Shown here piece by piece: positions 51-46,177 of a stretch of DNA of 46,492 bases. The stretch covers positions 1-46,492 of the forward strand of contig LXFE01004399.1 in assembly GCA_001929475.1 (NCBI GenBank), written 5' to 3'. The stretch comes from Neolecta irregularis DAH-3. Taxonomy: Eukaryota. The notes below the pieces were generated by a model. That model was not told the origin of the DNA and made no database searches. It worked only from the letters and a program-made list of their open reading frames with translations. The position numbers and the translations under genes are program-made. Position 1 is the stretch's first letter, and each line of letters opens with the position of its first letter.

Positions 51-2189
51 CTATTTATGTTTTAGTATTGGTGCTCTCTCTGCAATTTCTACTTCCTCTT
101 CCTCGTCCTCTTCTTCGTCCTCTTCTTCGTCCTCTCCCTCTTCCCCGTCCTCTTCCTCCTCTTCCTCCTCGCTCTCCCCCTCTTCCTCCTCACTCTCCCC
201 CTCCTCCCCCTCACTCCCCCCCTCTGACGTCGCATAAAAATCATCCAAACTCTGCATCCCAGTACGAACACTCTTAACCAATCTCGAAACACCAGGAGAA
301 ACATTCATCTTGTCTTCAACAGCCGCCACCTCGTCACGAAGTTTGGCCGATAAAGTCTCGCCGGCCCAGTCAGGTAATCGCGTATACCCAACAACCTCCC
401 TCTTCAAACACAACGACATACTTCCAATCGTATATTCCCCACCACACACAAAAGTAAACGGAGAAACAGGCTTATTCGTGAAAAACACTTCTTTCGATAA
501 AAGCGACGGCGAAGAAACAAGCGCTTTGTAAAATCTCGCACGGTCACGTATATCGCTCGACACATCAAATCGGGATAACTGGAAAATATACTCAAACAGC
601 AAAACAACCGGATCTTGATCAGGATGCAGACAGTATAATTTTGACGCAAATAGCAATATCTGCAATTTAACCAATCTCGTTTCTTGAGGAAATGATCTCG
701 CACACAGACGGAGCAGGTCCCTCGCGATTTCAGGGACCAGGGAAATATACTCGCCCATCATCCAAATTATATTCACGCGGGCTATATCGGGTTTCACACG
801 CGGCAATGCGCGGCCCAGTCTTTTGAGCAGCGTGCGATGGTTTTCGGGGTCCAGTTGAATTATTCGTCGGATAACTTGCATCGATTCAGAAATTAAAATG
901 CAAGATGTATCCAAGGAGATGTTTTTGACTAGTTTAAAGAGACATGTTTGCGATATCGAGGGGACGGAGAGCGCACAGCGGCCGATTGCTTTTACCGCCA
1001 GTCCTGAAAAGTCTGTTGACGACGATTTCGAGTAGTACTGCTATTAGAATAGAATCTAGATGGCGATACTTGTAGTTCTGTCAGGATTGTGTCCACGTTT
1101 TGATCAGTCACGAGTATCGCCAGGATGTCCAGTTTGAGTTCTTGGATGTAAGCGGGGTCTAGCGGCCACACGAAGAATTTAGAAAGGTGCGGATAAAAGA
1201 TTTCCTAGCTATTAGGCGATTCCGGCAGGTGGATACAGGTGTTGATGCAGCGATTGCAGAAATGTTGACAAGTGCTACGTATTGAATCTCGGGTGATTCG
1301 CGGAGTAGGCGTACGAGGGATGGGGCGATTTTGTAGAGGTCCTCGGGCGGCGCAAGATGTTTATAGATTTTGACAACAGCCATGAGGACCTGGGATGAGC
1401 AGGAGAGCTAAACGATGTATACTGCAGAATTGTTGCTCTCTACAAGGGAGAGGCTGGATCTAAAGAGTAGGTCGAGGTCCATGGTTAGCGGGGCGTCGAT
1501 GGGGGACGGAAAATGGTTTCTAGCGTAGAGTAGGAGAAAATCGAGCATGACGAGTTGATCCCAATCGCTCATGTCCACCAAGAGGCCGCACCAGCGGCGG
1601 TAGTGTTGATGGCACAGATCCCACCGGTGAGGCGCAATTGCAGCGAGCGACCCGACTGCCGGAGCGACGACTGAGTGGGCATGGTCTGCGAGAAGGGGAA
1701 TCAACAGATCTGTCAGAGCGGCCAAATGACTCGGATCCAGACTGTATTTAGCAATTAGCAAGGCCGAGAGTACCTGTGGCATCTTGGAATTGCGCGTGCA
1801 GCGGCCGCTCTAACTATAGGGCTTGAATCTGAAATAGACTTTGATATCGCGAGAAGGACTATGGGTGCGATAGCGGGGACGCGGATGGAGGCGATGACTC
1901 TGAGGGCGAGTGCTCGGAGGATTGGGTTTTTGTGGGAAAGAGCACGCTGGACGGCGTTTATCGAGAGAAGGGCGAGATCCGGCTCTTTTTGGGCGTAGCG
2001 GAGGAGATAGATGTAGACGCATCTGCGGGCCTGGATGCTTGTAGAGGCGACGTTTTTGACGACTGCGGGAAAGTGCAGCGAAAGGTCTTTGCCCTGGGCG
2101 AGGAGCGTGAGTAGGCGGCGAAGGGCGGTGATGCGTTCGCGGAGGAGTGAAGAGGATAGCATTGCATGCAGCTCCGTGTCTATATCCAT
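51..2189 (-). CDS. APL6: AP-3 adaptor complex beta subunit (4 introns of 32-33 nt)
   Basis: Adaptin-N motifs FPAVVKNVAS, VYIYLLRYA..EPDLALLSIN, RALALRV...IRVP and DIRDRARFY, plus an acidic C-terminal tail. Introns at 1742-1773, 1390-1422, 1205-1236 and 1038-1069 join the ORF fragments in frame. The start at ATG 2189 is inferred. Confidence 0.9.
90..225. repeat. Low-complexity (TCC/TCT/TCG)n tract encoding the acidic E/D/G tail of AP-3 beta
   Basis: Pyrimidine triplet run; minus-strand translation EEEEGESEEEEEEEDGEEGEDEEEDEEED. Confidence 0.8.
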
Positions 2190-2513
2190 GGTGGTTACGG
2201 GTGTGGACGTGGGTACTGTGGATGCTGGTATATCTTGTAGATATGGTGGTGAAATGGATATGGGTGGTGAATGGGATGGGGACAAGTGTTTATACGAGAT
2301 GGTATGCTTACGAGATGGGTGCCAAGGTGGTCGAGAAGGGATATGAAAGGTAATAATGATAAAGGTAATAATGAGTACGCGTGGATAGAGGATAGAAGTG
2401 GAGGAAACTAAGAGTGACAGCCACAGTAAGACAGACGAACAGTAGAATCGTAAACTACTCTACCCATCACCACTATCCATCAAGAATCAACTACCCCATA
2501 TCCACACTAGAAC

Positions 2514-3677
2514 ATGCCTCGCCGCCTCAATATCGCCCTTGTTGGTGCTGCTCCCTCAATATCCTGCTGATTCCAGGCCCCGGACTAGTCGGCACCGCCT
2601 TTATCCGCCAACTTGCTTCACTACCACCACGGCCTGTCCAGTTATGCCTGGTCGCCCTTGTCCGGTCCAATGCTGCGATTCTTGCCAAGGACATTAATGC
2701 CCTCGACCCAATGTCCTCCCTCTCTTCTCTTGATTCTTCTGCGTCCTCTGTTTCACCCGCTGCTCTCGCCTCATTCCTCTCGTCTCTCCCTGATCCCGCT
2801 ATTCTCGTCGATGCCACCGCATCAGATACGCTGCCTCAGGCCTATCATCTATTTCTCGCCCGCGGAATCCACATCGCTACTCCAAACAAGCGTGCATTCG
2901 CCTCCTCTGCCGCTCTCTATGCACAGATCCACGAAGCAGCCACCCTCGGAAACGCTAATCTCTTCCACGAAAGCACTGTAGGCGCTGCTCTCCCCGTCAT
3001 CTCTACCCTCCACGATCTCATCGACACCGGCGACTCTGTCCTCAGAATAGACGGCATCTTTTCAGGCACCCTCAGTTACATCTTTAACCATTTCAGCCCC
3101 GCTACTCACTCCTCCGCTCTATCTTTTTCACAAATCGTCACCCAAGCAAAACAACTAGGATACACGGAACCAGATCCCAGAGACGATCTCAATGGCATCG
3201 ACGTCGCTAGAAAACTCGTAATCCTCTCTCGCATCCTCGGCCTCAATGTAGACTCCACCTCCTCCTTTCCCGTAAACTCTCTTGTCCCAAAATCTTTAGA
3301 ATCAGCCACTCTTGATGACTTTCTCGAAAAACTACCCGACCATGACTCTTATTTCGAAAAAATAAGAACTGACGCTCAACAGAATGATATGGTTGTCCGC
3401 TACGTCGGTAGTATCAACGTCGCCACCGGCGAATTAAAAGTCGCCTTAGACTCATTTCCAAAATCACATCCTTTTGCAGCTCTTCAATCATCGGACAATC
3501 TCATCTCCTTTTGGACAAAAAGATACGGAGATAGACCCTTGATTATCCAGGGCGCGGGGTTTACTTTCTCTTTTGGCCTCTTTCAATTGACGTTCTAGAG
3601 CGGGTGCTGATGTTACTGCTATGGGTGTTCTGGCAGATGTGATCAGAGCAAGTCGAGAGATTATACAAAATACGTAA
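2514..3677 (+). CDS. HOM6: Homoserine dehydrogenase (2 introns)
   Basis: After removing introns 2545-2576 and 3559-3598: MPRRLNIALVG|GPGLVG Rossmann start, IATPNKRAF, ESTVGAALPVI, GYTEPDPRDDLNGIDVARKLVIL, IQGAG|AGADVTAMGVLAD. Confidence 0.95.
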
Positions 3678-7903: not shown

Positions 7904-7953
7904 AGTTTGCACTGAAAAAGTGGGTACGAGGATTATCAACATGATACTTGTTT

Positions 7954-8764: not shown

Positions 8765-11700
8765 ATGTCTGTGAAATCCTCACTTTCGCCCTCTCAAACC
8801 CATTTAAAACCAGTTGGAGGCATACATAATAGTAAGTCATGGGTCACCCCACAACCCAGGGCCCAATGGTCTGAATGGCCTGAACTTTCCATTGAAGTCT
8901 ACGATACTCCGCCAAAGTTTACCAGCTTTGATTTATTTCTTGCATTTCGAGAACAGGGAACTATCATTTGGGCAGAAGTATATGAAAGAAATGCGGACGT
9001 TGCCAAACCAGACAAAGCTAGAGGAATCTTGCGTTTTAGGTATTATTTGTCGGATTTGCTTGGAGTTGACATCATCAGGCCTGTGCCTCGTACTGACTTT
9101 TGGAACCAAGAGCGTATGCGAACTGATGGCACAGAAATCACATTCAAAATACTTCGTTATTTCCCCAGAGAAATCACTTATCTCGGAACCAAACTACCGC
9201 AAAGCGAGACCTTTATGAGCTCAGAAATTGGGTTTGGCCAGTTGGCTGGAGAGCGAATCGCTCATATATCTCATCGAGTCCCTTCATCGACCTCGATCAC
9301 CTTTGACAATCAAAAACGACAGTTTTTATTTGAATTTTCGTTTCACTACGATACCCGTCGATATCGTTTGCGGTTCGATTATACTCAGTTGACCGGAGGA
9401 ACCTTTTACATGCAACCCATTCCAGGAACTAGAGATTCTTACCTGGTATTTACCGTTAAAACTCCGCCGTTACTTTCCCGGAAGATTCAAGACGACCCGT
9501 TGAAGATACATGCCAAAGAGATAGAGCGGATCCAAAGTCGCCCATGGGAAGACAAATTCCAGTGGGTTCGTGTAAGTAGGATCGCCAAGGAAGGCTCGAT
9601 TCGTGCGAGGGATGATTGTAAGCCTGAAATTATTCAGATCGGTATAAACGGCATTAAACTGGGTTAATTCTACAGGAAGAAGACTGACTTATTGTCTGCG
9701 ATTATCAAAGGGCATTCGTGACTCGAACCGTCTCGCTAACTTTTTGCGCAGTGTTAAATGTCTAAATCTGGATGTGAACGAAACGGCCGTGTTCGACATT
9801 CTGCTCGATAAGCCAATCCATCTTCCTAATCTTGACAATGTGGCTTTTAACGTCCGCTACCTTTTACAATGCTGTTTGACGTTTAATGTCTTCACGGAAA
9901 GTTGTCTTTGCGAAGAATTCGTCAATGTCTTGACTCAATTAGCGCCAGGCGACGCTTGTGAATATTTGAAGGGTCTAATTATTCTTCGTAACACTGTTTG
10001 GAACCCTCTTGAACATATTATCGAGCATGCGACAATGAAATCTACCCCACCGAAACCGTTACCTATTTATTGTGTTGAGATGCGACATTGCACTATTACC
10101 CCGACCTGTATAACTGTATGTCCGGCCGATATCGAAACAAGCAATCGTATCACTCGCAAGTTCAGAAAGTATACCGAATACTTTATTCGAGTGCAATTTC
10201 TTGACGAGGTCCACAAGGTACATTTTGCCCTCTAAAGCAGTCACCTAATTGCAGGGCCGCCTACAATCAGATATGAAGGCTGATCTGATGGGTGCATACA
10301 ATCGTATCTTTGATGTCCTGAACGACGGGCTCGAGATAGAAGGCCGAAAATACGAGTTTTTGGCATACTCCAACTCGCAACTTCGTGAACATGGCTGTTA
10401 TTTCTTTCATACTACACCAGAAATGAGTGCAGATGAAATAAGGAATTGGATGGGTGACTTTTCCAATGAATATACAGGTCAAGTTTGTCCAAATACTCCA
10501 GTTAATCTCTAGTCGCTCGATTCGGTGCTCGAATGGGGCAATGTTTTTCAACAACAATGGACGTCATAACCGATTTTGATATACATGAAATCCCAGATAT
10601 TAAAAGGGGTTCCAGTTGTTTCACAGACGGAATCGGAAAGATATCGAAAGAAGTTGCAAAAGAGGCTGCTAAAGTTATACATATGAGCTACCACTCGGAG
10701 CCTTCTGCTTATCAGTTCCGTCTCGCTGGTTCTAAGGGGGTCCTCACAGTTGATCCAACACTTGAGGGCCGACAGATACATGTTCGGGCTAGTCAAACGA
10801 AATTCGAGAGTAAGCATAAAATTTTGGAGATCAACAATTGGTCAAGATATGCCATTGCCACCTTGAGTAGACAGGCCATAATTGTCATGACAGCGCTTGG
10901 AGTTCCAAATATCTCGTTCATTGATATGCAAGATGCACAAATTGCAGAACTCGATGCTATGATGATAAACGACAGGACAGCGGTAGCCATATTGTCGAAA
11001 AATGCAGATGATTTTGGTGAAATGGCAATACAGGCGAATTAAATAGTCAGTGCTAATATTCCTAGCGAATTATATCGGATTTGCTTGATGCCGGTTTTCG
11101 CGAAAGAGGAGATACATTTGTCTCGAATTTGGTACGCTTATACAAGAATTGGTGTCTCCGCAACCTTAAACAAAAGGCTAAAATTATCGTTCCGAATGGA
11201 GTTCATGTTTTTGGTTTTTTATACATTACTAATGAATCACACTAACGTTAGGTGTCGTTGACGAGACACTTTCTCTCAGAGGCCATCAAGAGGGTGCCGA
11301 AGATGACTTGCCAGAGATTTTTTGCCAGGTTTCCGAGCACGCCGAGTCATCTAATTCTCGAGTTATTAAAGGGAAATGTATTGTTGTAAGTTTCTTTGTC
11401 CGTTATTTTCGCCGATTCATTAGTATCGTAATCCACTATTGCATCCTGGAGACGTCAGGGTCGTCAATGCAGTACACTGCGAAAAGCTGATGCATCTCCG
11501 TGATGTCGTCGTATTTCCAGCAAGAGGATCACAAGATATACCGAGCATGTGCAGTGGAGGTGATCTCGATGGTAAAAAAATAATGATTGCGCTCTCCTGC
11601 TGACTTTCAAAAGGTGATACCTTTACCGTAATTTGGGACCCAACGCTTCTTCCAAAAATTGTAAACTGTGAGCCAATGAACTCTACCTCTTCCGAAGCAG

Positions 11701-12725
11701 TAACGGAAACAAAAGAGAAGAGAAGACGAAAGAAGATACCTACCGTTAAGGAATTAAAGATGTACTTTGTTCAGTATATCATGGTATACAGCTTTCATAA
11801 TCCAAAAGGATGCTAATTAGTTCCATAGAACGATAACCTTGGGTTGATAGCACATTCGCATCTCGCTCTGGCGGATGCCAAACCAATGGGCGTCTTTGAT
11901 GAAGATTGTATGCATATATCGTTTATTTGCTGAATGTACAGGTCTGCAACTGGCGAGGTTACATTCCAATGCTGTGGATTTCCCCAAGACTGGGATAGAG
12001 GTGGCACTTCCTTCCCATCTTCGACCGAGAACATATCCTGATTACATGGAAAAGAAACCTAGGATGACCTGTTTGTTCCTGGATGGGAAGAGGCACTCAT
12101 TTCAAGATCAGTCACATGGTATCCTGGGTATTTTATACAGAAAGATACATATTGAAGATTTTTATCCACTTCTGGGTACAACTTGAACACGAAGTTTGAC
12201 TAACGAGAGCCCCTCATTCCGATCCGCTTCTCAAGGTCAAATGTCAAGAAGAGCACTACAACTTTGCTGTTGCAGAGAAAGTAGTATATGATCTGGCAGT
12301 GCATCATTTGATGATTAAATATGGAATCAAAACAGACTATGAAGTCTTCACAGGTTTCATCATCTCTCCGTTATCAGTGTCCGGAAAGAAGGAATACCAA
12401 CTTAGAGAAACGATTTGGAGAGAAGCATGCCACTCTGTGTTTTAATTATTGACATCTTAGTACAGTGTCGTGAGAGATTTGACTCGTAGACGCTTGTACA
12501 GCTATGTTGAAAGTTTGTCTGGAAACCTTGCCGAAAACTTGCGCAAAGTTGTTTCGGCTACGTATTACATTACTGTACAAGAGCAGACTGAGAAATGGCA
12601 ACAAGAAGAGCAGGTTGCATCTAGAGTATCGTTTCCCTGGGTATTTCACGACGTATATTTCATGTTAATCAAATTGCTCACATTAGACCTTGATTGATAT
12701 TGTAAGAGGAAACAAAAAAGGGTAG
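8765..12725 (+). CDS. RNA-dependent RNA polymerase of the RNAi pathway (Rdp1/QDE-1/SAD-1 family), about 14 introns
   Basis: YEFLAYSNSQLREHGCYF, ARMGQCFSTT, FTDGIGKIS, PSAYQFRLAGSKGVL, RNPLLHPGDVR, catalytic SGGDLDG|DTF (intron 11572-11613), LHSNAVDFPKTG and SFPW. Reading frame traced through all exons. Confidence 0.93.
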
Positions 12726-25008: not shown

Positions 25009-25806
25009 TCAACGAATATCAGTTGAAATTTTCTTGGTGAGTCGCTCGTACATAAGTTCGTGAGATTTCAAACAGAACCCACGAGCTTGACGTAAACATA
25101 ACGAAAACTAAATGTTAGAGGCATTCAAGTGGCGTATTACCTCGTCCCAAGAAAACGAGCCGTTGCTTTCGGAGAAAACCGCCCTGTCCTGAACGTTGTA
25201 ACATACAACATGAGTTGATTTGGCATTTAATAAGGCCGTCTTATCCGGATTTTCCGATATTACTCCATCTGCCGATAAAGCAATCGCTGTAGCTGATATT
25301 GTTGAATCCAATGAGATACCAGCATCTATCAGAGCGAGACAAGTTGCATTTAACGCTGCAGCGAGAACTAAGGGCATCTAGTCTCAGCTTCTGTAATATA
25401 CATCATTAATTACTCCAAGACAATCCGGAGCTCCCACAGATATGACTTGACAGACGATTTGGATCAATGTGCGGGGGTGTTGATCAACCAATATGATTGG
25501 AGCGATAGCTTTTCGAACTAATCGTTCCATCAATTTTTCTCTTGTATCAATATTGTCAGCTTTGAGTTTTCCTATCACAGGCTATACTTGGAACCCCCGT
25601 GGCAGGTATAATAATAACCTCCAGAGCTGCTTCTCCAGGAAGTTCATCCCTTTGTTTAACTTCGATCGGGCCGGCGACAGAGCATATAACCTCCGTCACA
25701 TCTTTTTAAGTTCAACAATATGACTTTCATAAGCTCTGGTACCAGTTTTCCAACATGCCGAACCGTCTGCTTTGTGGAGTTCAGGAAATTCTGCAGATAC
25801 AGTCAT
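25009..25806 (-). CDS. RRP46: Exosome RNase PH-like subunit Rrp46
   Basis: LHKADGSA, VICSVAGPIEVKQRDELP, TREKLME, HPRTLIQIVCQV and AAALNATCLALIDAGI; 4 introns, one with a problematic acceptor (see findings). Confidence 0.88.
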
Positions 25807-25992
25807 CAAGATCAAGTGTGAAACTTGGTGTGGAGCCGTGAAACAAAAAATTGTAGTTAGCTTTTCAGGATGATATATATACATGAACAAAAATAATAAT
25901 TATCATGTAATGATGAAACAGTGTTTCAAGTCCATGGCGACGATAACTTTGACCTTTCTCAAATTTGAGCAAGTCAGTTGTATTCAAACTCT

Positions 25993-28022: not shown

Positions 28023-28406
28023 ATTTTGCATTCAAATCACGACGCAATATGTTTGATAGTTATAGCCGGATTTACGTGAACGAATTGATGGTGAAACGAG
28101 TGGCATGTTTGAATTGTAATGCAATTTGGATAATTTGGAACATGCGTGCTCGCTTCGATCACCGAGGATCATAGCCCGACGTTTCTATAGCAAGCTCTTG
28201 AAAGGATTATTCATAGATCTAGCACGATCTTTCAATTACGTGAGAAAGTTCTAAGAGGGACGAATAGACATCAAGTGCGGTCTGTAAGAAGTGGCAACAA
28301 GAATTGGATAATGTGCTGAAGCATTTACTATAAATTTGGACTTAAAGATAGTAAAAATGATATTGCTTCATGTTAGGCCCCTTCGACGTTTCACGTTCTC
28401 AAATAT

Positions 28407-30335: not shown

Positions 30336-32911
30336 GAGAATAAAGAGCGGACATCCGGAGAGGGAAAACGCGGTAGATAAAACGAAAGGCTATAGTTTTA
30401 GACGCGAGATCCTATGAAGTCATCACAAGCTCAGTGTATCCTTAGTTCTTGGTCGAGTCCTTGTAGAATGCCAGCCTGTTTGTCATGGTCGCGGCAAGCT
30501 CCAGCTCAGAATGGATTCGGAGGCCGAGACTTTATCCACGTACAATCCTTTCAGGGCTAAACAGGACATCTCATTGATCGTAATGGTCTACGTGAATGCG
30601 CCAGCATTGGGTGTAATTATATATCACGATATATTCATGTGAAGAATATAATCAGCGTAAACGCTATTAACATCCTGGAAAGCTCTGAAGTAAATATCGC
30701 TTAAAGGGCAAATGACAATGCGTTTTCAACTCTTGTCGTAAAGTAGAACGCATTGCACCAATTTGGGTGACTTCGCCTCCTATACGAGGATATTTTTAGC
30801 TTCATTTTGACAATGTGTCAAGAAATCATTCAGAGACGATAAGAGAAGGCCATTAGACATAATTTCTCTCAGTATAAAAGGCAAGTTCTCTAAATGTGAT
30901 AGAAATAACAGAAAACTGTCGCAAGCAGCTCCAATCCGGAGGCATGATGTTCTCAGAATTTCATCCGGCTAGGTAATGCGTTAATAATCGCTGCCGGAGG
31001 CCTATTATGGCGTTTCCTAACTAGTGTTTCCAAGTATTTCTGGCTTAACCCGGTTGTCTGAATTATCAATGACGTCCACTTTGAGTGAGGTGGGGTTTGA
31101 AATCAATGAGAAATGAGCTCCCGAAATCATGGACGTGAGTTTACGTGCAATGAAACGTATGAGCGAAGAGGCAATTTTAAAATGACGACATATTCCATTT
31201 ACAGACTTTAATTGAAACCACGCGAATTCTAGCCTCACCCGAAATCTCAGTAGAAAAGGGGCTTTAGTCGATCGACCATTGAAGCTATGTTCAGGTGTAA
31301 AACCATTCTAGTAAACCCTGTCCTCAAATAAAGCGTTATAATGCCTACAGGGATACTGCGCAAAGGCCTGATTCAAACAGTTAATTGGCCGCATGCCTTG
31401 GAAGACTGACAGATATGACGGAAAAGAGACAGTAATCTCACATGGTCATGACGACATCTTCCTAAAAAAAAGATTTCTTAGAGGCGACAAGCAGTGTTTA
31501 TGCCACTTCAAATACCGTTTAATATGCATCGCTATGGCGTTAACAGTTGTTTCACATACCCCGCTTTATCACAATTTCGCTTTAGTGCCAATTCATCTTA
31601 ACAGTCAGAGGCACTATGGCGTTTATTGCTTTATTTATCGCTTTAGTCGCTCTCGTTGAGGAGACGCCCGTTATTGCTGCATCCAACAACGACGTTTCAG
31701 AAACTAAAACTAGGGTCCAGCGTAGAGATCCGGTCGTGAAGCGCCAAATATCAGCATAGAAAACCGGGAGGACAAATGTTGCTAGAGATTCAAACTTTCG
31801 TTCAACGTCATAGTGGTGAAGCATCAAATGTCAAGGCAGAAATCAGGAGAGGACGAAAGGTTTTGCCAAACATCTTTCTTCCACCCCCAGTACTAGCTCG
31901 AGCGGGATGAAGGATACTACCAGTCATATACAAAAGTAGACTGAGATTTAATAGAACAACTGTTTGATTGACAATTCGAACAAGTCAACATGCCCCTTCG
32001 ACTCCCACTGGGGCATTGCTCATCAACACCTCTCACGAGTAAAAAATTCCAGTCTTTGTCGGAGAGGAATAGTTCGACATGTGGTTTGTAAGTGTGCAGC
32101 TAGCGGTGTTGTACTATATATTCAAGTCTGTTTGCCAATGAATCAGTGACTAGGCCTGTTATATACAATCTTGACGTGCCATGCATCTGCTTTCATTATC
32201 ATTATCATTATCACTAGCACTAAAACTTTCTTATTCCCTTCAGTGTATCGCATCGCGGGGATAATACGTGTACCTTCCTCGTACGATCAAGTGAAAATTA
32301 GGATGTCCTTATTCTTAAACTCTTTAGGATGTACAAATATGTCTATGAATATTTGCTCTTTTTTTCAGTCAAGGGTTTCTCATCTTGTCGAAGTGCGGAA
32401 ATTTTTCCTGCTTTCGAGGTGTAAGCTATGCGCTTAGAAGTACGATAAGACCAAGTGTTATAACTAGCCTAAGTATTCGTACTTGGCTAGGAATATCCAA
32501 CTTCCGCCTTTATATACTTCCCGTCAAGCCACCTTGCCGTATTGGTAAGATATACCCTAGGCAGTTCGAAAGCTAGAATTTTCTATGACTCTGGGAAATA
32601 GTCTCCATTTTGAACCGACTATCCCATGGTAATCTCGCTATTTGGGATGACCTGTTAGTCTTGGTATGGAGGCATGACCAGAGATTAGAAAACATTGACA
32701 TAACGATCTAGCGGTGTGAAGGCATTCATACTCTTTGGCAACCTTGAATCTTTTCCAGTAATTAAAGGAATTCAGTAACAAGGCTGCAGAATCTGTCTAA
32801 AGTGAGGGTCATAAAACACAGATAAAAATTCAGATATGATATACAAATACCGCACTGGGTGAAAAAAGAAAAAGCACACAAGCGCATCCAATGTAATAAA
32901 GAGGACATCGA

Positions 32912-33307
32912 TCAGTATTTCGCGACTGGAGGATAAGCTGGAGCTTGATAGGCAGGCTGTTGTTGTCCGTACTGTTGTTGAGCGTATTGCGGGCCTTGAT
33001 TATACTGGTACTGGAGCTGAGATGGCTGTTGATTCTGGTTGAACTTGTTCATGCCGAATCTTCCCATGAAACCACCTGCTTGTGTGGACGGTTGACCCTG
33101 TACACAAAGGCGCCTACGTCTCGAGCGAATTGCGCAAAGAGCAAATAGCACTGTGAGTGTAACAGCTCCACCGAGCAAAATCCATCGTCCAAAAGAGGAC
33201 CAGCGGCTTTGATAGTAACATCGTCCAAATGAATCACAGTAGTATCCGTATGACCGAACAACCAAATGCTGCGTTGTGGCACCGGCTATCTGGGCGAGAG
33301 CAGGCAT
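32912..33307 (-). CDS. Small single-pass membrane protein, RCR (chitin regulation / Congo red resistance)-like
   Basis: YYCDSFGRCYYQSRWSSFGRWILL, a TM helix, an RRRR stop-transfer segment and a Q/Y/P-rich tail ending APAYPPVAKY. Confidence 0.7.
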   Translation of the reverse strand: MPALAQIAGATTQHLVVRSYGYYCDSFGRCYYQSRWSSFGRWILLGGAVTLTVLFALCAIRSRRRRLCVQGQPSTQAGGFMGRFGMNKFNQNQQPSQLQYQYNQGPQYAQQQYGQQQPAYQAPAYPPVAKY

Positions 33308-33656
33308 TTCCTTTCGGTGCGGTTGAAGTTGAAATGTGCGGAAGTCGGTTATTTTATACAACACTGCGCCTTGTTACCTTTATTGGCAGTTTACATGAAC
33401 CAAATTTGATGATAGCTATTATTAGAACTAATCTCAGTATTTTTCACTGATTATTGATGCAGTTAATGAGAACTTTAGGTCTGCTTCTTGCCCATCAAAT
33501 TTGAATATTGGATGAAAAGCGTTATTATAATATTTCATTGGATACCTCAAGCCCTACCATATTTTCCCAAGCTATTACGGCGATGGAGCACCAACGTTTT
33601 GGATAGAATACTATACGCACTTGGATTTGAGATAACCCCAAATCACTAATGAGATA

Positions 33657-36410
33657 TCACGAAATCACCTCCCAGTCCTTTCTTTGGATAACCTCAAACT
33701 GCGTAGGATCCATTACAAGCTCTAGTTCTGTAAGGATACAGGGTATATTCTTACCAATACAGCAAGTGGCTTTAGTGATATTGACAGCATTAAATAAGAG
33801 GGTATATAAAGAAGGGAACCACATATACCTAACCTGGGTTACATTCATATAACTTAGGTTAGACAATTAAACCTAGTCATATTTGTACCCGAAGCGAACC
33901 ACTTACAAGTTCCCTAGAAATCCATGTCATGTTTCTGCTAAACTACCTGGCACAAGCACCTCGAATATCGACAAGTAATTTTGGACACCTGTTATGATCT
34001 ATATTCCCTCTAATTGCAAATCTTGCATATTCGCTTTGAGTTTTCTGAAGTTGATCAGACCCTTCCAGGCTCTCATTTTTACTCTTCATTATACAAATGA
34101 GTCCTTTGAAAGACATCCACATAAAAGTCCGGCTGGATGACATCAATGAGTAGTCTTTCCTGAGTTTCGATAACTCTTGACCCTTGGACCAGATGTTCAG
34201 AGCATAATGTTGAGACGTCCTCCCAGGTCGAAATTTCTGAAGTCGGTGGATTGGCAGTTAGTGACCCAGAATGTACAATGGACACTGCAGGCATCGTACA
34301 ATCAAGAGGCTTACTAATAATTTCAGTAGATCTTTCAAAGTCAGCAATGTTTACGAGAAACGGCCTCTAGGAATAGTTATCCGAATATACTGGCAAACTT
34401 TGAACAATGCAGCATTTTTTATTGTTCGAAGTACGTCCTGGCTATAAATACTTTCAGTAAAACCGGGTTGTTACCTTGGTAGATAGTCGCATGGTCCATT
34501 TCATGCCCAAGCCACTTTTACCAGCAATGACATGCTCTTTGTCCGTTTGAGCACCTATCACTAACTCAAAGACTTGATTATCCGGAGTTGTCGATGCTTC
34601 TCCTGGAATCTCGGCCTTGCCGCGCCTGTCACCATATAGGGTGACATTATTAATCAACTGCAACCGAACTCTTGAAATCTAGCTGTAATTAGTTTCTTCA
34701 ATGAGCAGGACGGTCCTTTTTTGAACTATTGTTCTCTATTCGAATATCCACTACAACATCTTCCCCAGATGGAATTAGGGGTTGTTCAATCTTTGCTGAA
34801 ACAAAAACTCCATGTTCAGTCGTTGTCATTCGAAGTGGTTGTTGATATTCTGCATTGCGCAGGTCCCAGGTTCCTACAACATCCACTGATTCGGATTTTT
34901 CAATAATCTCTGTGGTTCCAAGCATTCTAACTTTGGTGTATCCTGTTATAACGTATTTGATCCTCGCAACTTCGACTTCCGTACTAGATGGACTATCTTT
35001 TGGAAGATTAAAGGTAAAAGGAAATGAATGTAATCCTTCTTTAGCTTTACGGTAACCTTCAGAATCAGGTGGTGGATGAGGGAATGAGACTGCCGATGTG
35101 ATACTTTCAAAGTTACGACAACGAATGTATGGCAAAGTTTGCGAGGGTAATTGGAAAATATGGCGAGATTGAAGGAATACAAAAGCGCGCGAAGGATGAG
35201 ATGGCCGAGATTGGACTTCTTTGATAGTTCAGCATTTTGAAAGGGCTCGAAAGAAACCTTCATAACCCAAAAGTTCGATTCCTATCTCCCCAACAGTGAA
35301 AGAACCTAGCTTCTTGGAACCGAAACTTTTACTGCTTTTAACGACAAGGTCCATTCTGCCAAATATTTCGCCTCCTGCTACGAATGTAGTTTTGTGAAGT
35401 ATGATTTTAATCTTGATCATACGAAGATGCGCAAATGTGTTAACCGTCGGATGACGTATGGCTGGAAACGATAACTCCGGATGTCTGATTGGAGGAAAAG
35501 GTAAATGGGTTAAAGTTATCAAAGGGTCTGATTTCAAAGTGGAATAAACCCCAGCAGACGACGGTATATGTTGGAGAGAACCATGTGGGATTTTAGGGAG
35601 AAGCCTTATGTTCGACTTCTCTGTCGAATGCTGGCTCCTGAAAGATTGTTGGTAGTCCGAAAAAGAAAGCGTCGGCGAAGAAGATCGATTTGGAGTAGTT
35701 ACGAATTCGGAGGAAGATCTTAGAGTTTGGAGGGATCTCCCATATTGACTTTCAATCGACGTATGATAGGAGGGACGAAATGGCTCTGTTTCTCCGGGAG
35801 ATATAGACGGAATCAATGAAACTGGAGAGAAATGGCTTGATTGCGTATTATGCCTTCCAATACCAGAATCTTGCTGACTTGGCAGAGAGGTCGTGCTACA
35901 GCCTGGATTTCCGTCGAATTGTCCGACATCCAGAATCGCTGGTGCATCTGACCAGTCCCAAGCATATGAAGGATAGAAGTCCGAAGGCTGTTCCTCAAAA
36001 TTGTTCAAGTTAGAAGAAATAAGCGAATGATATTTTCCGAAACCTGGTCTGGCAGAAACGTGCGGAGGGGCGATTATGCACGAATTTCGATATGATTCCT
36101 CCCCTTTGTGTGGAGTCAGGGGAACTCCAACTTGATGATCCTGGGAGAATTGAACGGGTACAAGTTCTTTCGGAATCACAGGGTAGAATTGTTCATTTCT
36201 CTGGGATATTTGTGTTGGACTGTCGAGACAATCTGAATCTGGAGAGGGATTTCGGAAACCAGGGGTTGACAGATGCTGTCTAGTCACGGCAGGACTTTTA
36301 TATTGGTCCAATGCCGGAGATGGCTTTGCATAGCCAGAATGGGCTTCCCCGGGTGGTTCAAAACCATCATAGGAGCAATAGTCTGGCATCCAATTGCTTT
36401 GATGGTTCAT
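33657..36410 (-). CDS. Arrestin-fold protein with a long disordered N-terminus
   Basis: IILHKTTFVAGGEIFGRMDL, GLHSFPFTFNLP.DSPSS....ARIKYVITG and GEDVVVDIRIENNSSKK (arrestin N/C domain patterns). The 3' exons are less certain. Confidence 0.72.
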
Positions 36411-37884
36411 GGAGTGGGACAGGAAGGAATTTAATTAGCGGGCCGGTCTAAGAAGGGAAAGTGTGTTGATGCGAGATGCATGTTGCAACCCGCGGGAACA
36501 AACTGCCGACTTTGTGGTCTTATCGGTGAAGATGCGAGTTTGTCAGACACCCACCGCACGCCACTGACGTAACCCGATACCCGATGGCCGATCTTGTTGT
36601 TTTGTCTGAGGTGTCTGATCCCGTATCATTCTATTTGCACAAACAGCAACAGACAACAGAAACTTGTCCCTTAGTGATTTTCTTGAGCTGTGCATGAGAA
36701 CATCGTGTATTGCCGCGAGGCTTTGTATCATGCCGAGTACATCTGCGGTGCCGGTTGCAGTTCTCAGTATGAGCAGGGGCATGAGGACTATTCCGAAAGA
36801 AGGTGCTTCCCAGAATGGACTGTGGCAGAGAGTCTTTGGCTATCCGCCCAAAGTCTGCTCAAAGCAACACAGAGGAAATCTTTGGGGTAAATGAAAGAGT
36901 CGTCAATTCTACCGAGTCGGCTGGAAGTCGAACCCTTATACCACCAACGTAGCCAATTCCGCTTCCGTGGAAAGGTCGAATCGGCCCTGCGTATGCAACT
37001 CTATATGCTCCAAGTTCAAACTGACCTCCTCTAGCTACTTGAACACTATCCTTTGCGGATTGGAACCTCCAATTTTCTGCTAATATGCTGGATGGAAAAA
37101 ATCAACAAACCCGAAAATAAGGACCTAGACATGATGATCTCTCAAAACTCATTGAATGGAACGAACGATTCGGAATCCGGTTTTTAAGAATGTCAAGCGA
37201 AATGTTTCCTTTTGCCAGTCATAAAATCTCTGGTGATATTCTCTAGAGCATGCAGACAAGGCATTGAAAGAAGCTGGCAGACTCGCTGTGAAATATAGCC
37301 ACAGACTGACCACTCATCCTGGTATTGAAACTATGTGAATTATATCTAATAGAGAGGCCAGTTTACTCAGATTGCTAGCCCCCACCCAGATGTCTGTAAC
37401 ACTTAGAATACCATGTGGAAATGATAGAACGATCTGCCCTAAGCCTATGCCACTCACTGGCAAAGCTGATCTCCACTCTACAATGGCGGCCTGCTCTTCT
37501 ACTCCCTGCCGCTCTTTGCTGTTGCCAGTGCTTTCCTCTGCTGCTTGTCTCCCCATCCTCGCCTCCACCATCATCCCCAGCTAGGCTTTGTCTCTGCTTA
37601 CGCTGTATTGCAAGCTCAAGTGGGCCAGCTACAACCTATTCTGTGGAGGGCCAAAGCCCATGGGCTTTTCAGAGAACTGGGCTTTTCAAAGGACTGGGCT
37701 GGCCCATGGGCCCAGGTGAAGCTATTCAGATTGCTTATTCCAAAGTGTTATGGATTGGAATACTATCTAGACTTTGTAATAGCAGATTGTAGAGTACCAA
37801 TTGTTCCACACGGGTATTGTGGGAGTGGGACTTAAGCGATTTTTCCTCTCTGGTGTCATTGCGTAAAGAGGATCCTCACCCAAT

Positions 37885-38080
37885 AATTCGAATTTTAAGA
37901 GAAGCCATATAAATGTGGTGCACACCAAACGCGCGCTGAAAATTTGAATTTTTAAAAAAAAGCCAAGTTTTTAAAATGTGGAGCGCACCAAGCTCGAGCT
38001 CAAAATTCGAATTATAAAATAAGCCACATTTTATGAAATTTGGTGCGAAGAAACGCACCCTTAATTCGAACTTGTAAAAT
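37885..38080. repeat. Degenerate ~60-bp tandem repeat, about 3.3 copies
   Basis: Units start at 37885, 37941, 38004 and 38063 and share AATTCGAATT..AAGCCA..AAATGTGG.GC.CACCAA. Confidence 0.7.
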
Positions 38081-38236
38081 TTATTCATTGGAAACACTAG
38101 CGCATTTAATTTCGGTATAACATGGTTTGTTAGCTTGCATAGTACCAAATTAGTCGTCTCGGGACTACCATAAACACTATTCAAGACAATGAAACACTGG
38201 ATCAAAAAAAGCCTCCTTCCTCGAAATTAAAGCACC

Positions 38237-39064
38237 ATGTCTTTCCTATTCCCTCGTCCAAAGTCCTACTGCTCTATAGTGTCAGAACCCTCTGCTCGCC
38301 ATCAAGAACACCATTTTGAAAACCCCCGTGTGATCAGTGATGTTATCATCGGTCTTTCAGACGGGTTGACAGTCCCATTTGCATTGATGGCCGGCCTATC
38401 GTCACTTGGAAACGCGATCGTTATAGCCGGTGGAATGGCAGAGTTGATTTCAGGGGCTATCAGTATGGGTTTGGGAGGCTATTTAGCTGCCTCTAGCGAG
38501 GCAAAGGTACCCCATAATTTTTGGGTCAGATATTTACGACAGCACTACGCAAATGAACGGAGGAGAGAGGAAAAAGAGATCGTTGAATGTCCCGAGGAGG
38601 AAGAGGAGGAGATATTCGAAGCGCTGGCTCCTTATGGTGTCACGAGAGAAGCATGTCAACCTATTATCGAGTGTTTGAGGAAGAACCCAAAGGGATGGGT
38701 TGACTTTATGATGAAGTTCGAACTTGGATTAGAAGAGACGGGAATGAGAAGGGCTTGGGTGAGCGCTGGGACAATTGGAATTAGCTATTTTCTTGGCGGA
38801 CTGTAAGCTTCCTGCTTCTTGTATGATTCATTCCGACTGTTTAGAATCCCGATGCTGCCTTATTTCTTTATCAAAGATGCTTTAAGTGGACTTTGGGTAA
38901 GTATTGTGGTGACTGCAATTGCCCTTTTGATATTCGGATACGTTAAGAGTAGTTACATTGTTAGCCGCCGAAGTGAAGCGGTCATGGGATCCTTGCAGGC
39001 TTTAATTGTTGGTGGAGCTGCTGCATTGGCTAGTTGGGGAATCGTTAGATTGATGGAACATTGA
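38237..39064 (+). CDS. CCC1: Vacuolar Fe/Mn transporter (VIT1/CCC1 family)
   Basis: DVIIGLSDGLTVPFALMAGLSSLG, AELISGAISMGLGGYLA, DFMMKFELGL and YFLGGL|IPMLPYF; 2 introns. Confidence 0.95.
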
Positions 39065-39113
39065 AGAATAAGACATCTGGGATACTAATGATAATTGAAA
39101 TGGCTATTGTTCT

Positions 39114-40487
39114 CTAGTAGAATATGCTCCTAGTTCTATGGCATGGGATTGGTTTCGTCTCGTTCCTTGCTTGTATCTCTTTAGCAGTATCCCAGAGGAA
39201 AAAGTCGATCAGGATAGCATTAATATTAGTATATCCGAGCCTTACAATCTCCTGACGAATCTTTTCAACACACCAGATTGATGCGCCGCGAAGCTGGATC
39301 TCATATGGATGACCAGGTTCTATCACAATTTGGTTTTTGATTACGCTCTCGAGACGAGGTGAATAACGAATACAATTCAAAGTGTGGAGTATTTGAGGTA
39401 CCCTATGAACTAAGCGCCTCGAAGTTTGAGTGCCTTACCGATAGTCTGCGAACATTGTGATATGATCTATGTCACAGAAGGATCCGTACGACTCGCCGTA
39501 GAAACAAGCCCATATATCTGCCACCAATATTTGAGCGCGTTTATAAAATTTCACTACCAATAAGAACATTTACATGGACGAAATGCCTGTTCGATTCTCA
39601 AACCTATATTCATCTCTAAAGCAAGGAAACTCCTTCACAAGGTTTTCGATGAATGATATCACAGACCCGTTTGCCAATTTGAGAAAGTTCACGAACGATC
39701 CATTGTATCTCTATGGAATTAGCAAAGGTAGTGAATCTTAGATTACACCTCGCATAGGACGGACCCAGCTTGCCGCAGGCATTCCACCCGCTCCTTCCTT
39801 CCAGTTGGTTGTTAGGGCAACAATGGTTCTTACAGCATGGGAATGGGCTCCGTCGAGTCGCTTCTAAATATTCTTTCGATATCCTCATCAGAAGATTCAA
39901 CCCAGTAACTCGGAGTTGTCATTGGGATCTCTGCTGGTCAGCAGAGGGTTTTGTGAACAAGTTTCCTTCCAAGAGAGCTCTGTTAATAGCTGCACAGAGG
40001 CTCCAGTAACCAGTCCACTTCGTTCCATTTTCGAGAATACAGTAACGGTCAGGATGTGTTCCCGTGTCTTCAGAGTCAAAGTCTGACCAGAACGAGAAGT
40101 TGAGAAGGTCGATCAGAAAAATCCTGATCAATTGAGGTTCATAAGTGGTTAGAATACCAATTCAGACTTGATTCGTCCTTTGACTTGGGGTTCAAAGGAT
40201 GAGAAGCCCATGTCTCCACAGTAAAAGGTGTTTCCCTCATTGCGGAAGAAATCTAATAATGAACGAATCAGTGATAACGAGGACGTACTAACTTTGCTGC
40301 AGCTACGCATCCATCTCGATCAATAGCTATATCGAGCATGTTCTGTATATCAGCACATCCCTTTTCTGAAACATACATCACTGATGAACTCTGCCGACTC
40401 CAAAACTCCTGTTGAGTTCACTTTTGGTTTCCCGAACCGTTGCAGAAGGATCTCGCGCAACTCGGGGACCAGTTCATCCTCGCTCAT
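39114..40487 (-). CDS. QNG1: Queuosine salvage protein (QNG1/DUF2419), 8 introns
   Basis: [81 protein letters not shown] and [10 protein letters not shown]. Confidence 0.93.
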
Positions 40488-41154: not shown

Positions 41155-42003
41155 CAGTGTTCCTAATCGACTAGACCATAGACTGGTCTAGACGGTCTAG
41201 TCCATCATATACATGTGAACCAAATACTCGCTCCTTGGGAGTTAGATTGCTTAGCTTTTGTGGTATCTTTTATGTATATAATGATGTATCTAGTTCAGTG
41301 TGGTACAAAACATATTTTTCACACTCACCCGCCCACCTCACCCTGCCTGTCCTGTCTGCCTGTCCCGTCTGCCCGCCTCTTTCGTCCGCCCCTCTCGTCC
41401 GTCCGTCCCGCCTCTCTCGCCCGTCCCTCCCTCCTCTCTCGCCCGTCCCTCCCTCCTCTCTCGCCCGTCCCTCCCTCCTCTCTCGCCCGTCCCTCCCGCC
41501 CGCCTCTCACGTTCTGCCTTTCCGGTCCCGCCCGTCCCTCCCACTCTCTCTCCCTCTCTTTCCACCCGTCCCTCCTGTCCGGCCTGGCCATCTCTCCCAC
41601 CTCCTTCATCTATCTCTCCCACCTTGTCAGCCTGCCTCTCCCATATGTCCAGCCTGCCCTCTCACCTGTCTGTTTGTCCTGCTTGCCAATATTTAAATAA
41701 ATATAAAGAATCATAGACATAATACAACAATTTATACTTGATTTTTATTTACTTCTTGGGCTTTTAAGCCCATAGACTTTGGCCCATCCCCAACACTACA
41801 AATACATATTTCCTACTTCTAAATGCTCCAAATCATTGACTTTTTATAAAGGAAGATAGAATAGAGACTTAGACCACTTAGACATCCAGACCGACTTGAT
41901 GTTTGGTCTGGTCGGTCTAGACCGATTTTAGCTCCAGTCTGGTCTAGTCTATATAGACTGTCTAGACCGACCGTCGATTTGGTCTAGTCGATTCGGAACA
42001 CTG
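41155..42003. mobile_element. Inner non-autonomous element with hAT-like CAGTGTT termini
   Basis: 24-bp inverted repeats at 41155-41178 and 41980-42003 (23/24) and many subterminal CTAGACC/GGTCTAG motifs at both ends. No clear 8-bp TSD. Confidence 0.72.
41414..41497. repeat. 22-bp minisatellite (CTCTCGCCCGTCCCTCCCTCCT) x ~3.8, inside a pyrimidine-rich tract at 41325-41685
   Basis: Perfect copies start at 41414, 41436 and 41458; a partial copy starts at 41480. Confidence 0.9.
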
Positions 42004-42929: not shown

Positions 42930-45173
42930 ATGTCTCGTGATAAACATGTTCAAATTGCTCTACCGAATATCTACGACAAGATCAAGTCGTCAAAAGTCCT
43001 TATGGTCGGAGCCGGTGGGATCGGGTGCGAGTTGTTAAAAAATCTTGTTCTGACTGGCTTCGGAGAGATTCATATTGTATGTCATCTGGAGCTGTCCGCC
43101 TTAATTTCTCCTCAACAGGTTGATCTGGATACAATCGATCTCTCAAATCTCAATCGGCAATTTCTGTTTCAGAAACAGCACGTTAGAAAGCCAAAGGCAT
43201 TGGTAGAATTGTTATAGCGTGATTTATCAAATAATCCGGTATAGGTTGCGAAGGATGCAGCAGGATCTTTCAATCCGAATGTTAAACTAGAAGCTTACCA
43301 TGCAAACATCAAAGATCCAACCTTTCATTTCCAATGGTTTCAAAGCTTTGATATCGTGTTTAACGGCCTCGACAATTTGGGTACCTCGAGATCATGTTCT
43401 CGACACTAAGCTTACCCAACAAGATGCTCGTCGTCATGTCAATAAAATGTGTCTTGCTGCAAATGTTCCGCTCATAGAAAGTGGAACAACAGGTTTTCTA
43501 GGTCAAGTTCAAGCGATTGTAAAAGATCGGACAGAATGCTACGACTGTACCCCAAAGCAAACGCCTATAAACTTTCCTGTATGCACTATTCGAAGTACGC
43601 CTTCTCAACCTATCCATTGTATTGTTTGGGCGAAGAGCTATTTATTTGTGTAAGATTCATTATAAAATTCTCGCAATAAGAGCATTTAGGCAGTTATTCG
43701 GCGTTGATAAAGATGAGATTAACGATATGGATTATTATGAAAATGTAGACAATAGTACGCTGATTCCTAACATTAAGCGGTCCTGACTTTAAAGCGGAGG
43801 AATTAGGCAATCTGAAGCGCGAAGCAGATGCCTTAAAGAATATGAAAAGTGCAGTGGGAAGGCCTGAATTCGGCCAAGTGGTTTTTGACAAAGTCTTTGG
43901 AGAAGATATTTGTCGATTGCAGTCGATGAGCGACATGTGGAAATCGAGGAAACCGCCGGTTGCACTGAACTTTGCAGACATGAAGAAGAATGCAGGTCAA
44001 CAAATGATAGATTCTGCCGCAATTTGCAGTAATGATCAGAACATTTGGACACTAGAAGAAAATTGTGCCATGTTTGTTGACAGGTTTGGGCAAAAGCCAC
44101 AATCTGTGGATTCAGTATTCACTTGGTAGTTTGCAGAGACTAAGCGATCGATTAAAGAAAGAGCAGAGCACCAGACAAGAAACGGGGGTTGCGCCTATCT
44201 TGAATTTTGATAAAGACGATGCTGATACCTTGGACTTCGTGGCGGCAACCGCTAATATTCGATCTCACATCTTTGGAATTGAGAAGAAATCAAAATTCGA
44301 AATCAAACGTAGGCCTTTAATGAACTGATTTAAATAACGGCGTAGAAATGGCGGGAAACATCATCCCTGCAATTGCAACGACTAATGCTATTATTGCCGG
44401 AGTTTGTGTTCTACAAGCTTTCAAAATTATGCAAAATAAATTGCACGAATCAAAAATGGTACATTTCCAGGATATCTCGATTTTCTTTTATTCTTAGGTA
44501 TTCTTGTCTCGACGGCCAGAACATGTCTTCAATACCGAAAGACTGCAGCTGCCAAATCCTCATTGTGATGTATGTGCTGTCACGCGATGTGCCTTCGAAG
44601 TCGATATTTTTCGATTGAAAATCGGGAAGTTTGTAGAGAGTGTTCTACGACAACTTCTTGAATATGAAGAGGAACTTTCTCTCATGACTGACAAGTTAAT
44701 CTACGATTTTGATTTTGATGACAATGCTTCAAAGACTTTTGCAGAAATGGGTATCAATGATGGAGCCTTTTTGACCGTGATCGACGATGCTGAGGATGAA
44801 GACCATATCAAACGAGTTAATCTGGTCTTGTTGATTACTCACAAGTATTACAAAAGTGTTCTACAACTAATAATATAGAATATTCGAGCCCTCTCACATA
44901 CCATATAATCTCCCATTATTGCCAACGGTCAAAGCCAGAGTTCTAAAAACAGAACCACAAAAAGACATATCGTCAGATGAAACGGCTGTCCTTGATTCTT
45001 CATCCTCACATAAAAGAAAGTTTGTTCAGAGCAGCGAACCACTTTCGAAGAAACGTAAAGTTTCAGAGACCAGTCATCTCAACGGCTATGCAGCCTATGC
45101 TACAAAGCTTCTGGTTGATAAAGATATCATTGTCATTGAAGATGAAAATCGGGATACCATAACTATTGATTGA
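42930..45173 (+). CDS. UBA2: SUMO-activating enzyme E1 catalytic subunit, 9 introns
   Basis: [38 protein letters not shown], catalytic [48 protein letters not shown] and a C-terminal NLS and SIM-like IIVIED. Confidence 0.96.
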
Positions 45174-45220
45174 TTTAGGCAAAGTCCAGGGAATACACTA
45201 TGAAAAGGATCAGCCTTACT

Positions 45221-46177
45221 TTAATAAAATGATAATCCACCGTCTATGGTAATTGTGCTTCCATTTATATAAGTGTTTGTTGCAACCATGAATGCAGCTT
45301 CAGCTACTTCCGAAACTGTTCCTGGTCTTTTTAGTGCTGATGAAGATCTCATGGCTTCCGAAAAGCCTTCCGATTAACGAAGTTGTAGAATAGGCCCACC
45401 TGCAATCATATCAGTGTCAATGTATCCTGGAGCAATCCCGTTTACACGAATTCCAGAGGGCCCAAATTCCTGTGCAAGTGCTTTGGTGAAGCCTGAAGTT
45501 TTACTGACTTGACAAAATAATATGTATATAGACCTAGTACACCAGCTTTGCTGGCAGAATATATGGCACATCCTGACGAACCTCTGAGCCCTAAGATTGA
45601 CGAGATGTTGATGATAGAGCCTTGGAGACCTTAATGAACAAATGGAACGTTTAGAATACCTGTTTTATTCTTTAACATATTTTTTCCAATGATCTGGCAG
45701 CCATATACTGTCCCAATCAAATTGGTTCGAATAATCTGGTCAATTTCTTCTTCTGAGGTGCGAACAAGAAGCGTCTGTTGCCCAATCCCTGCAGTTTAGA
45801 ATAAAGTCTTCTAAAATTCATACCAGCAGAATTGACAAGTATATCTACGTCTTTAAACTGAGAATTTCAGAGTCCACCGGATGAGAAAGTCGTACCTCTT
45901 TGCCTAACTCTACCCAAAACTTTCTCTCTCCAACATCCCCGAACCGAGCTTTATGATCCAATCCGGGTAATCCTGCACAGGATTTCTGTAATTCGACCAT
46001 AGACCGGGAAACGAGGATACATTTTAACCCTTCCTGAGCAAATCTCTGGGCTATGGCAGCACCAATTCCTCTGGAGCCGCCTGTTATTAGACAAACTTTA
46101 TTTTGAAGTTTTGAGAAACTGCGTTTGTTGACAAGGGTGGGGTTCCTTGCTGATAAAAGACCAAATTGTATAAGCAT
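45221..46177 (-). CDS. Mitochondrial 3-oxoacyl-ACP reductase-like short-chain dehydrogenase (Oar1/CBR4-like), 5 introns
   Basis: [45 protein letters not shown] and ITIDGG; N-terminal presequence-like segment. Confidence 0.88.

Follow-up and report, generated by a model that had tools for sequence, protein, structure and literature searches.

The window analysed here is a 46,492-nucleotide (nt) stretch of DNA from the fungus Neolecta irregularis DAH-3 (contig LXFE01004399.1, taken whole), and the genes in it are interrupted by tiny introns, a few of which do not begin with GT or do not end with AG. A census of 101 introns in 23 genes, spanning positions 1038-45895 of this one window, gave 94 GT-AG, four GC-AG, two GA-AG and one GT-TG intron. 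At least three of these introns have such odd ends and probably seven do, as judged from their sequence. Our reading, to which we give a probability of about 0.7, is that they are ordinary U2-type introns of a narrow size class, recognised as units, and that odd ends are tolerated at a level of a few percent. In the predicted translations, conserved proteins are obtained only when all seven odd segments are removed. We infer both that the seven introns are spliced at exactly these ends and the way in which they are recognised.

The tiny introns themselves are real. The sequence-only reading of this DNA had reconstructed about 100 of them, nearly all of 30-45 nt, and this is confirmed: 100 of the 101 fall in that range. 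The full range is 30-46 nt, with a median of 38 and a standard deviation of 3.3. The introns of APL6, given before as 32-33 nt, measure 32, 32, 33 and 32 nt when taken in order of increasing window position. If retained, 92 of the 101 introns would shift the frame or introduce a stop. Their removal restores open frames encoding conserved proteins, as for U2-type introns, and the models of Qng1, RNA-dependent RNA polymerase (RdRP) and RRP46 align over their full length. Public proteins of N. irregularis DAH-3 were 99-100% identical to the window exons in homologue searches. The window has 40-49% G+C and contains many short open frames on both strands.

The census was made with our own gene finder, in which codon log-odds derived from nine long open frames feed a dynamic programme containing intron states. 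Limited to GT-AG, it returned 45 introns with lengths of 31-51 nt plus two outliers, and the local signals from this run were a GTA donor and a CTRAY-like branch site close to the 3' end. When other ends were allowed at a cost, 75 introns were obtained, five of them odd, and a looser run added more. The finder alone is the basis for 76 of the 101 introns. The other 25 draw on alignments with homologues or paralogues, on spliced contigs from a contig run called X2, on a public model (one intron) and on reading by eye. Homologues were used to correct Qng1, RdRP and RRP46, and paralogues to compare two tandem zinc-cluster genes. The finder fails at short exons and overlooks in-frame introns free of stops; it missed those at 9040-9078, 38507-38542 and 43077-43118, so that 101 is a minimum count. 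We left out any finder intron that lay beyond the 23 gene spans or ran against the strand of the gene, and two odd candidates, at 25191-25223 (+) and 22921-22958 (-), were dropped for lying on the strand opposite to known genes. Two further calls were rejected: an intron at 30234-30270, which falls within the zinc-cluster motif, and a GT-TG intron at 39802-39833, which is really GT-AG at 39798-39833.

Splice signals are clear at some positions and nearly absent at others. Among the 95 GT donors, A stands at +3 in 77 (81%; 1.03 bit), positions +4, +5 and +6 carry 0.17, 0.09 and 0.08 bit, and the last exon base is G in 46. The earlier statement that +3 to +6 have next to no consensus therefore holds for +4 to +6, each below 0.2 bit, but not for +3. 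The 100 AG acceptors have T in 44, C in 31, A in 21 and G in 4 at -3, in agreement with the NAG acceptors described before. In the best branch-like 7-mer, the A lies at a median of 9 nt from the 3' end (interquartile range 7-15), the commonest cores being CTGAC (14), CTAAT (11), CTGAT (6), TTAAT (6), TTGAC (5) and CTAAC (5). A branch motif is present in six of the seven odd introns, and the Qng1 GC-AG intron has a weak one only. The six non-GT donors (hexamers in Table 1) have G at +1 in every case and A at +3 in five. Four of them follow an exon-final AG, versus 16 of the 95 GT donors (Fisher p = 0.013), so that the preference for an exonic AG before non-GT donors, also remarked upon earlier, is borne out. 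All four GC donors read GCA, with G as the last exon base in three and exon-final AG in two; their donor context is otherwise strong (+1.7 to +3.7 bits). It had further been proposed that intron ends are set mainly by length, branch point and exonic AG. The tight length, the near branch motif and the AG enrichment fit this proposal, but donor +3 is not free.

We call an odd site firm when the homologue alignment leaves no workable GT-AG alternative, and probable when there is an in-frame GT-AG alternative altering 0 to 4 residues. By this measure three of the seven sites are firm and four probable, somewhat fewer than the eight or nine non-GT-AG introns first thought to be needed. Two firm sites lie in Qng1 (DUF2419, queuosine salvage), for which 10 of the 120 listed homologues were aligned. 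With the GC-AG intron removed, the spliced model has the length of eight of the ten fungal homologues, the other two being one residue longer, and no in-frame, stop-free GT-AG alternative was found at this junction. With the GA-AG intron removed, the model aligns without gaps to ten of ten homologues (homologue stretch RALDEGIPITS...); GT-AG alternatives would lose 5-25 conserved residues. This intron stands at the 67th percentile of true introns in a context score made up of donor context, branch site, acceptor context and length, the end dinucleotides being excluded. The third firm site is the 41-nt GC-AG intron of RdRP, where 14 of 20 non-self matches were aligned and short or differently built ones omitted. 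Its sole GT-AG alternative, of 83 nt, loses 14 residues held by all 14 homologues and scores below all true introns, the GC-AG intron itself being at the 63rd percentile.

The probable sites are supported in different ways. For the 36-nt RdRP intron, splicing gives a gap pattern shared with 12 of the 14 homologues. The alternatives with GT-AG ends measure 24, 27 and 36 nt and would make a difference of 0 to +4 residues; the two that were scored (24 and 36 nt) rank below all true introns. In the Zn2Cys6 factor TF-A, the GC-AG intron has the same codon position and phase as a GT-AG intron of its paralogue TF-B (26780-26821); a 31-nt GT-AG alternative (GTTTAA) adds three residues and scores at the 1st percentile. 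In the arrestin-like gene, the exon upstream of the GA intron ends at position 35 of 137 of the Pfam domain Arrestin_C, and a 43-nt GT-AG alternative drops two residues and bypasses two closer AGs. Pfam gave no match for the exon downstream of this intron, nor for the TF-A exons, and a homologue search with the arrestin-like exon returned the public model of the same gene as its sole match. Finally, the GT-TG splice in the RRP46-like RNase PH gene gives GVPNTREK, which fits GVPTTREK and similar stretches in homologues, and its branch site lies 8 nt from the intron end. Here a 49-nt GT-AG alternative loses three columns that are filled in 15 of 15 full-length homologues (chosen from 44 non-self matches), a 28-nt alternative adds four residues, and the 37-nt intron of the public model gives 12 unrelated residues. 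A metagenome scan for a close relative of Qng1 yielded only one of 53% identity, which was not used.

Could all these introns be GT-AG after all? The odd sites would then result from forcing a fit to homologues, nearby GT-AG junctions would be used, and small indels or truncations in the proteins would be real. In-frame, stop-free GT-AG alternatives do exist at six of the seven odd sites, and public models use such junctions. We nevertheless find this explanation unlikely. The Qng1 GC-AG intron lacks any GT-AG alternative, and the alternatives at the other two firm sites cost residues present in every aligned homologue. None of the eight alternatives that were scored, at five sites, exceeds the 2nd percentile of true introns, and three of them (83, 24 and 28 nt) fall outside 30-46 nt. 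By comparison, six of the seven odd introns stand between the 49th and 83rd percentiles when ranked among the 81 finder introns, and they reach the 98.6th percentile or higher among 6,874 random GT..AG pairs. When the removed length was kept fixed and shifted by -12 to +12 nt, an open GT-AG intron appeared at none of the seven sites.

The public models also show what the GT-AG junctions would entail. They depart from the homologue-fitted reading at all four comparable odd sites, in three proteins (P0121, P0142 and P0187) whose protein clusters are singletons. P0121 (RdRP) uses the 83-nt intron, with the resulting 14-residue deletion, and at its second odd site has a five-residue insertion and a seven-residue deletion relative to homologues. 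P0142 (RRP46) uses another GT-AG pair, by which a conserved stretch is swapped for 12 unrelated residues. P0187 (arrestin-like) runs into the GA intron and stops, and is thus truncated within Arrestin_C, at the position given above. No public Qng1 model of at least 168 residues holding the last exon was found. Judged against the homologues, the public annotation mis-models the odd-intron sites, as had been predicted for standard gene callers. The public RdRP model has, in addition, an extra intron near the C-terminus (SFPWTLIDIV...), within 12461-12697 (+); read-through of this segment gives SFPWVFHDVYFML, which fits SFPWVFHDVLGKL of a Peziza homologue.

Evidence on the exact junctions and on the underlying DNA comes from two contig runs, X1 and X2, whose joints were compared with the window over 20100-40099; 15 of the 50 joints are listed. 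X2 is recorded as 'DNA?', yet it has joints lacking introns. Its word share of 0.82 fits transcripts without introns and spacers. The X2 joints take out segments of 33-42 nt bounded by GT..AG (or CT..AC), and seven of the eight listed X2 joints match predicted introns exactly, all seven GT-AG (Table 1). Predicted exon borders also coincide with the ends of three listed X2 contig pieces (26779, 29217 and 35258); the one stopping at 29217, although the record continues, does so at the acceptor side of the TF-A intron, which is common to both readings of that site. The eighth joint, 39788>39826, has one extra letter in between and a depth of 141.7; it misfits the intron at 39798-39833, and its net removal is also 36 nt. 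One X2 contig (38110-39536) spans the VIT1-like gene on the + strand, with two introns removed, and continues into the 3' end of Qng1 on the - strand, with the last intron removed. The two convergent transcripts either overlap or were merged in assembly.

The odd ends might alternatively be defects of this particular copy, that is, assembly errors or mutations in one haplotype or in a decaying copy, with working alleles that are GT-AG. Both Qng1 odd sites do sit in a region, 38.7-40.1 kb, where X1 has extra divergent contigs, and a UV-damage endonuclease (UvdE) remnant in the same window resembles a pseudogene. In that region (38700-40099) the X1 depth is 833-1634, i.e. two to four times the baseline of about 435, with dozens of other letters; these extra contigs over VIT1 and Qng1 represent a second haplotype or a close duplicate. 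However, of the five odd sites in 20100-40099, four lie at normal depth within X1 contig pieces free of other letters, including the pieces 25269-25606 (RRP46), 33861-37687 (arrestin-like) and 39639-40099 (Qng1 GA-AG), and no other letter occurs at any odd end among the X1 rows listed (26 further rows exist). Odd introns apart, each of the six genes concerned is intact along its whole length. The odd donors are also non-random, both in their bases at +1 and +3 and in their preference for a preceding AG. Defects of this copy appear an improbable source of the odd ends.

Several points weigh against our own reading, that of U2-type introns with tolerated odd ends. None of the 15 listed joints crosses an odd site. 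X2 depth is 0 at 39558 and 39588, near the Qng1 GC-AG intron, and 114.2 at 39544 and 39602, but an uncovered site is no evidence. No X1 piece is listed for that same site, in a region with several divergent X1 contigs, and its intron has a weak branch site and a context score at the 9th percentile of finder introns and the 86th of random pairs. The two RdRP sites lie outside the 20-kb stretch compared with X1 and X2, and X1 may be the assembly's own source and hence not independent. The scoring matrices were trained on canonical introns chosen by the same finder. With an equal penalty on every non-GT donor and non-AG acceptor, the finder kept five odd introns among 81, with the ends GC-AG, CC-AG, TC-AG, GT-TG and GT-CG, and at the 36-nt RdRP intron it picked a CC..AG pair 5 nt further on. 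The finder marks where an intron is needed, not its exact ends, which rest on the homologue alignments and on the requirement of G at +1. At four of the seven sites, moreover, an in-frame GT-AG alternative would alter 0 to 4 residues.

These four sites decide whether there is an excess of odd ends at all. Seven of 101 against an expected 2% of non-canonical introns gives a Poisson probability of 0.005, and two GA-AG introns against an expected 0.1% also give 0.005 (0.10 for one). The firm sites alone amount to 3 of 101 (3%; P = 0.33 against 2%). Any claim of an excess thus hinges on the four probable sites, and it is drawn from a single window. The sequence-only reading had placed the odd ends beyond the usual 1% or so; this stands if all seven are counted and falls if only the three firm ones are.

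How would such introns be recognised? We propose that they are probably recognised as whole units, by their size (30-46 nt), a branch site of the CTRAY type and a minimal GTA donor. With so few donor positions being read, C or A at +2 would be tolerated in a few percent of introns. This tolerance would apply chiefly behind an exon-final AG and with A at +3, so that U1 pairing, and U5 contacts, could compensate. How far the branch site lies would largely decide the 3' cut, and one TG end may be allowed. Methylation of U6 (N6-methyladenosine, m6A) and U5-exon contacts may matter for such donors, an idea that comes from work on fission yeast.

A more radical explanation, in line with the modified U1, U6, U5 or Prp8 recognition suggested by the sequence-only reading, would be a changed machinery (U1 5' end, U6 ACAGAGA box or its m6A, U5 loop 1, Prp8 or U2AF) that relaxes the GT-AG rule genome-wide, much like the changes described for larvacean tunicates. 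It would account for the near-uninformative donor positions +4 to +6 and for 7 odd ends in 101 if all are real, and in Fritillaria, according to the accessible text of PMC13326754, non-canonical splicing accompanies U2AF duplication and altered m6A of the small nuclear RNAs (snRNAs). Against it, GC-AG and rare GA-AG introns are spliced elsewhere by unmodified spliceosomes, and a few percent needs no new parts. Nothing in the window bears on the machinery: an Rfam scan found no snRNA gene, its sole match being a tRNA-Ser (anticodon AGA) at 46287-46371 (+), and no spliceosomal protein gene is among the 23 genes. We consider a changed machinery rather unlikely. Somewhat less doubtful, and still tentative, is a bolder form of the preferred reading, in which Neolecta would be the first fungus to accept GN donors (GC, GA) routinely and a non-AG acceptor occasionally, in about 5-8% of several thousand introns, on the basis of a 30-46 nt ruler plus branch site instead of the donor sequence. 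A sizeable share of its published proteome would be mis-modelled at those sites, and changes in U2AF or snRNAs of the kind seen in larvacean tunicates would be possible.

Table 1. Introns of the window discussed in the text. Odd introns come first; in donors, a slash marks the exon-intron border.
Gene	Ends	Length (nt)	Position	Strand	Basis and details
RdRP	GC-AG	41	11025-11065	+	Firm; homologue alignment; donor atg/GCAATA, branch GCTAATA
Qng1	GC-AG	33	39554-39586	-	Firm; homologue alignment; donor cag/GCATTT
Qng1	GA-AG	35	39931-39965	-	Firm; homologue alignment; donor aag/GAAACT, branch GCTGACC
RdRP	GC-AG	36	12425-12460	+	Probable; homologue gap pattern; donor gaa/GCATGC, branch ATTGACA
RRP46-like RNase PH	GT-TG	40	25548-25587	-	Probable; homologue alignment; donor caa/GTATAG, branch GCTGACA
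TF-A (Zn2Cys6)	GC-AG	40	29218-29257	-	Probable; paralogue comparison; donor aag/GCAAAA
Arrestin-like	GA-AG	37	34679-34715	-	Probable; Pfam domain; donor aag/GACCGT, branch ACTAATT
APL6	GT-AG	32-33	1038-1069, 1205-1236, 1390-1422, 1742-1773	-	1038-1069 is the first intron of the census
Hikeshi-like	GT-AG	39	22085-22123	-	X2 joint 22084>22124, CT..AC on +
Hikeshi-like	GT-AG	41	22210-22250	-	X2 joint 22209>22251
Hikeshi-like	GT-AG	39	22330-22368	-	X2 joint 22329>22369
RRP46-like	GT-AG	33	25108-25140	-	X2 joint 25107>25141
TF-B	GT-AG	42	26780-26821	-	Paralogue comparison; X2 piece ends at 26779
VIT1/CCC1-like	GT-AG	36	38507-38542	+	X2 joint 38504>38541, cut read 2 places on; in frame, overlooked by finder
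VIT1/CCC1-like	GT-AG	42	38803-38844	+	X2 joint 38802>38845
Qng1	GT-AG	36	39403-39438	-	X2 joint 39401>39438 (cut +1) and homologue alignment
Qng1	GT-AG	38	39711-39748	-	Homologue alignment
Qng1	GT-AG	36	39798-39833	-	Homologue alignment, reading by eye
Qng1	GT-AG	34	40124-40157	-	Finder and homologue alignment
Qng1	GT-AG	36	40253-40288	-	Finder and homologue alignment
Qng1	GT-AG	34	40343-40376	-	Finder and homologue alignment
Short-chain dehydrogenase	GT-AG	38	45858-45895	-	Gene finder only; last intron of the census

Some other features of the window deserve mention. The UvdE remnant lies at 36900-37500 (+), with 37121-37243 corresponding to Pfam UvdE positions 45-74 of 275. It has a 2-nt frame slip near 37232, its later conserved blocks are short or missing as judged by eye, and it is probably a pseudogene. 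The two Zn2Cys6 genes are tandem paralogues on the - strand (TF-B, 25993-28031; TF-A, 28407-30389) with intron positions in common. A repeat of about 140 base pairs at 32420-32557 reaches an X1 word depth of 21781 versus about 435 nearby, and an X2 depth of 1684, with many loose ends; it matched no Rfam family. Two low-complexity stretches were seen: a Pro/Ser-rich open frame at 41281-41700 (+), without gene model support, and 54-240 (-), where APL6 has its long acidic tail.

Should the odd ends hold across the genome, Neolecta would offer a fungal example, experimentally independent of the others, of a GT-AG rule that has loosened, and would reveal the extent to which a spliceosome can depend on length and branch site where little is specified by the donor. 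The public gene set would then contain systematic errors in the form of deleted segments, false insertions and truncated domains. Such errors feed orthology, intron-evolution and gene-family studies, and gene callers for Neolecta would need GC and GA donors and a length prior of 30-46 nt. This early-diverging ascomycete is a key species for the origin of fungal multicellularity. As far as the accessible text of PMC5309816 goes, its assembly comprises 14.5 Mb at 199-fold coverage with 5,546 genes, and both DNA and RNA were sequenced; the words 'intron' and 'splic-' are absent from the main text, and the supplements may bear on how the models were made. From what is accessible of PMC7940399 and PMC8476143, both relied on the Neolecta annotation. 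Our literature search found no description of Neolecta splice sites.

Among known systems, U12-type introns are a familiar source of non-GT-AG ends. They have an RTATCCTT donor and a TCCTTAAC branch box, with AT-AC and GT-AG ends. The donors and branch 7-mers of the seven odd introns do not resemble these, none is AT-AC, and a U12-type identity was rejected. The narrow length range recalls the introns of Paramecium, Stentor and the Bigelowiella nucleomorph, where it also suggests unit recognition, but those are of 15-25 nt and strictly GT-AG, whereas the introns of Neolecta measure 30-46 nt and carry a clear branch motif. GC-AG introns of the major spliceosome are similar in that GCA opens four of four here and that length, branch site and acceptor are ordinary. 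They differ in frequency, 4 of 101 here, although the excess rests on two less certain cases. In the accessible part of PMC7072748, non-GT-AG ends make up about 2% or less in fungi, and a GA-AG excess is reported only for the copepod Eurytemora affinis and the tunicate Oikopleura dioica, with AG before the GA and A after it. Both GA donors here likewise follow AAG, as AAG/GAA at 39965 and AAG/GAC at 34715 (two cases). In those animals GA-AG outnumbers GC-AG, unlike here, where the order is reversed, the organism is a fungus, the introns are far shorter and the two cases are known from sequence. Finally, as in the larvacean Fritillaria borealis, a major spliceosome would handle introns that break the GT-AG rule; according to the part of PMC13326754 cited above, these are 95% of the introns in Fritillaria, and they are at most about 7% here.

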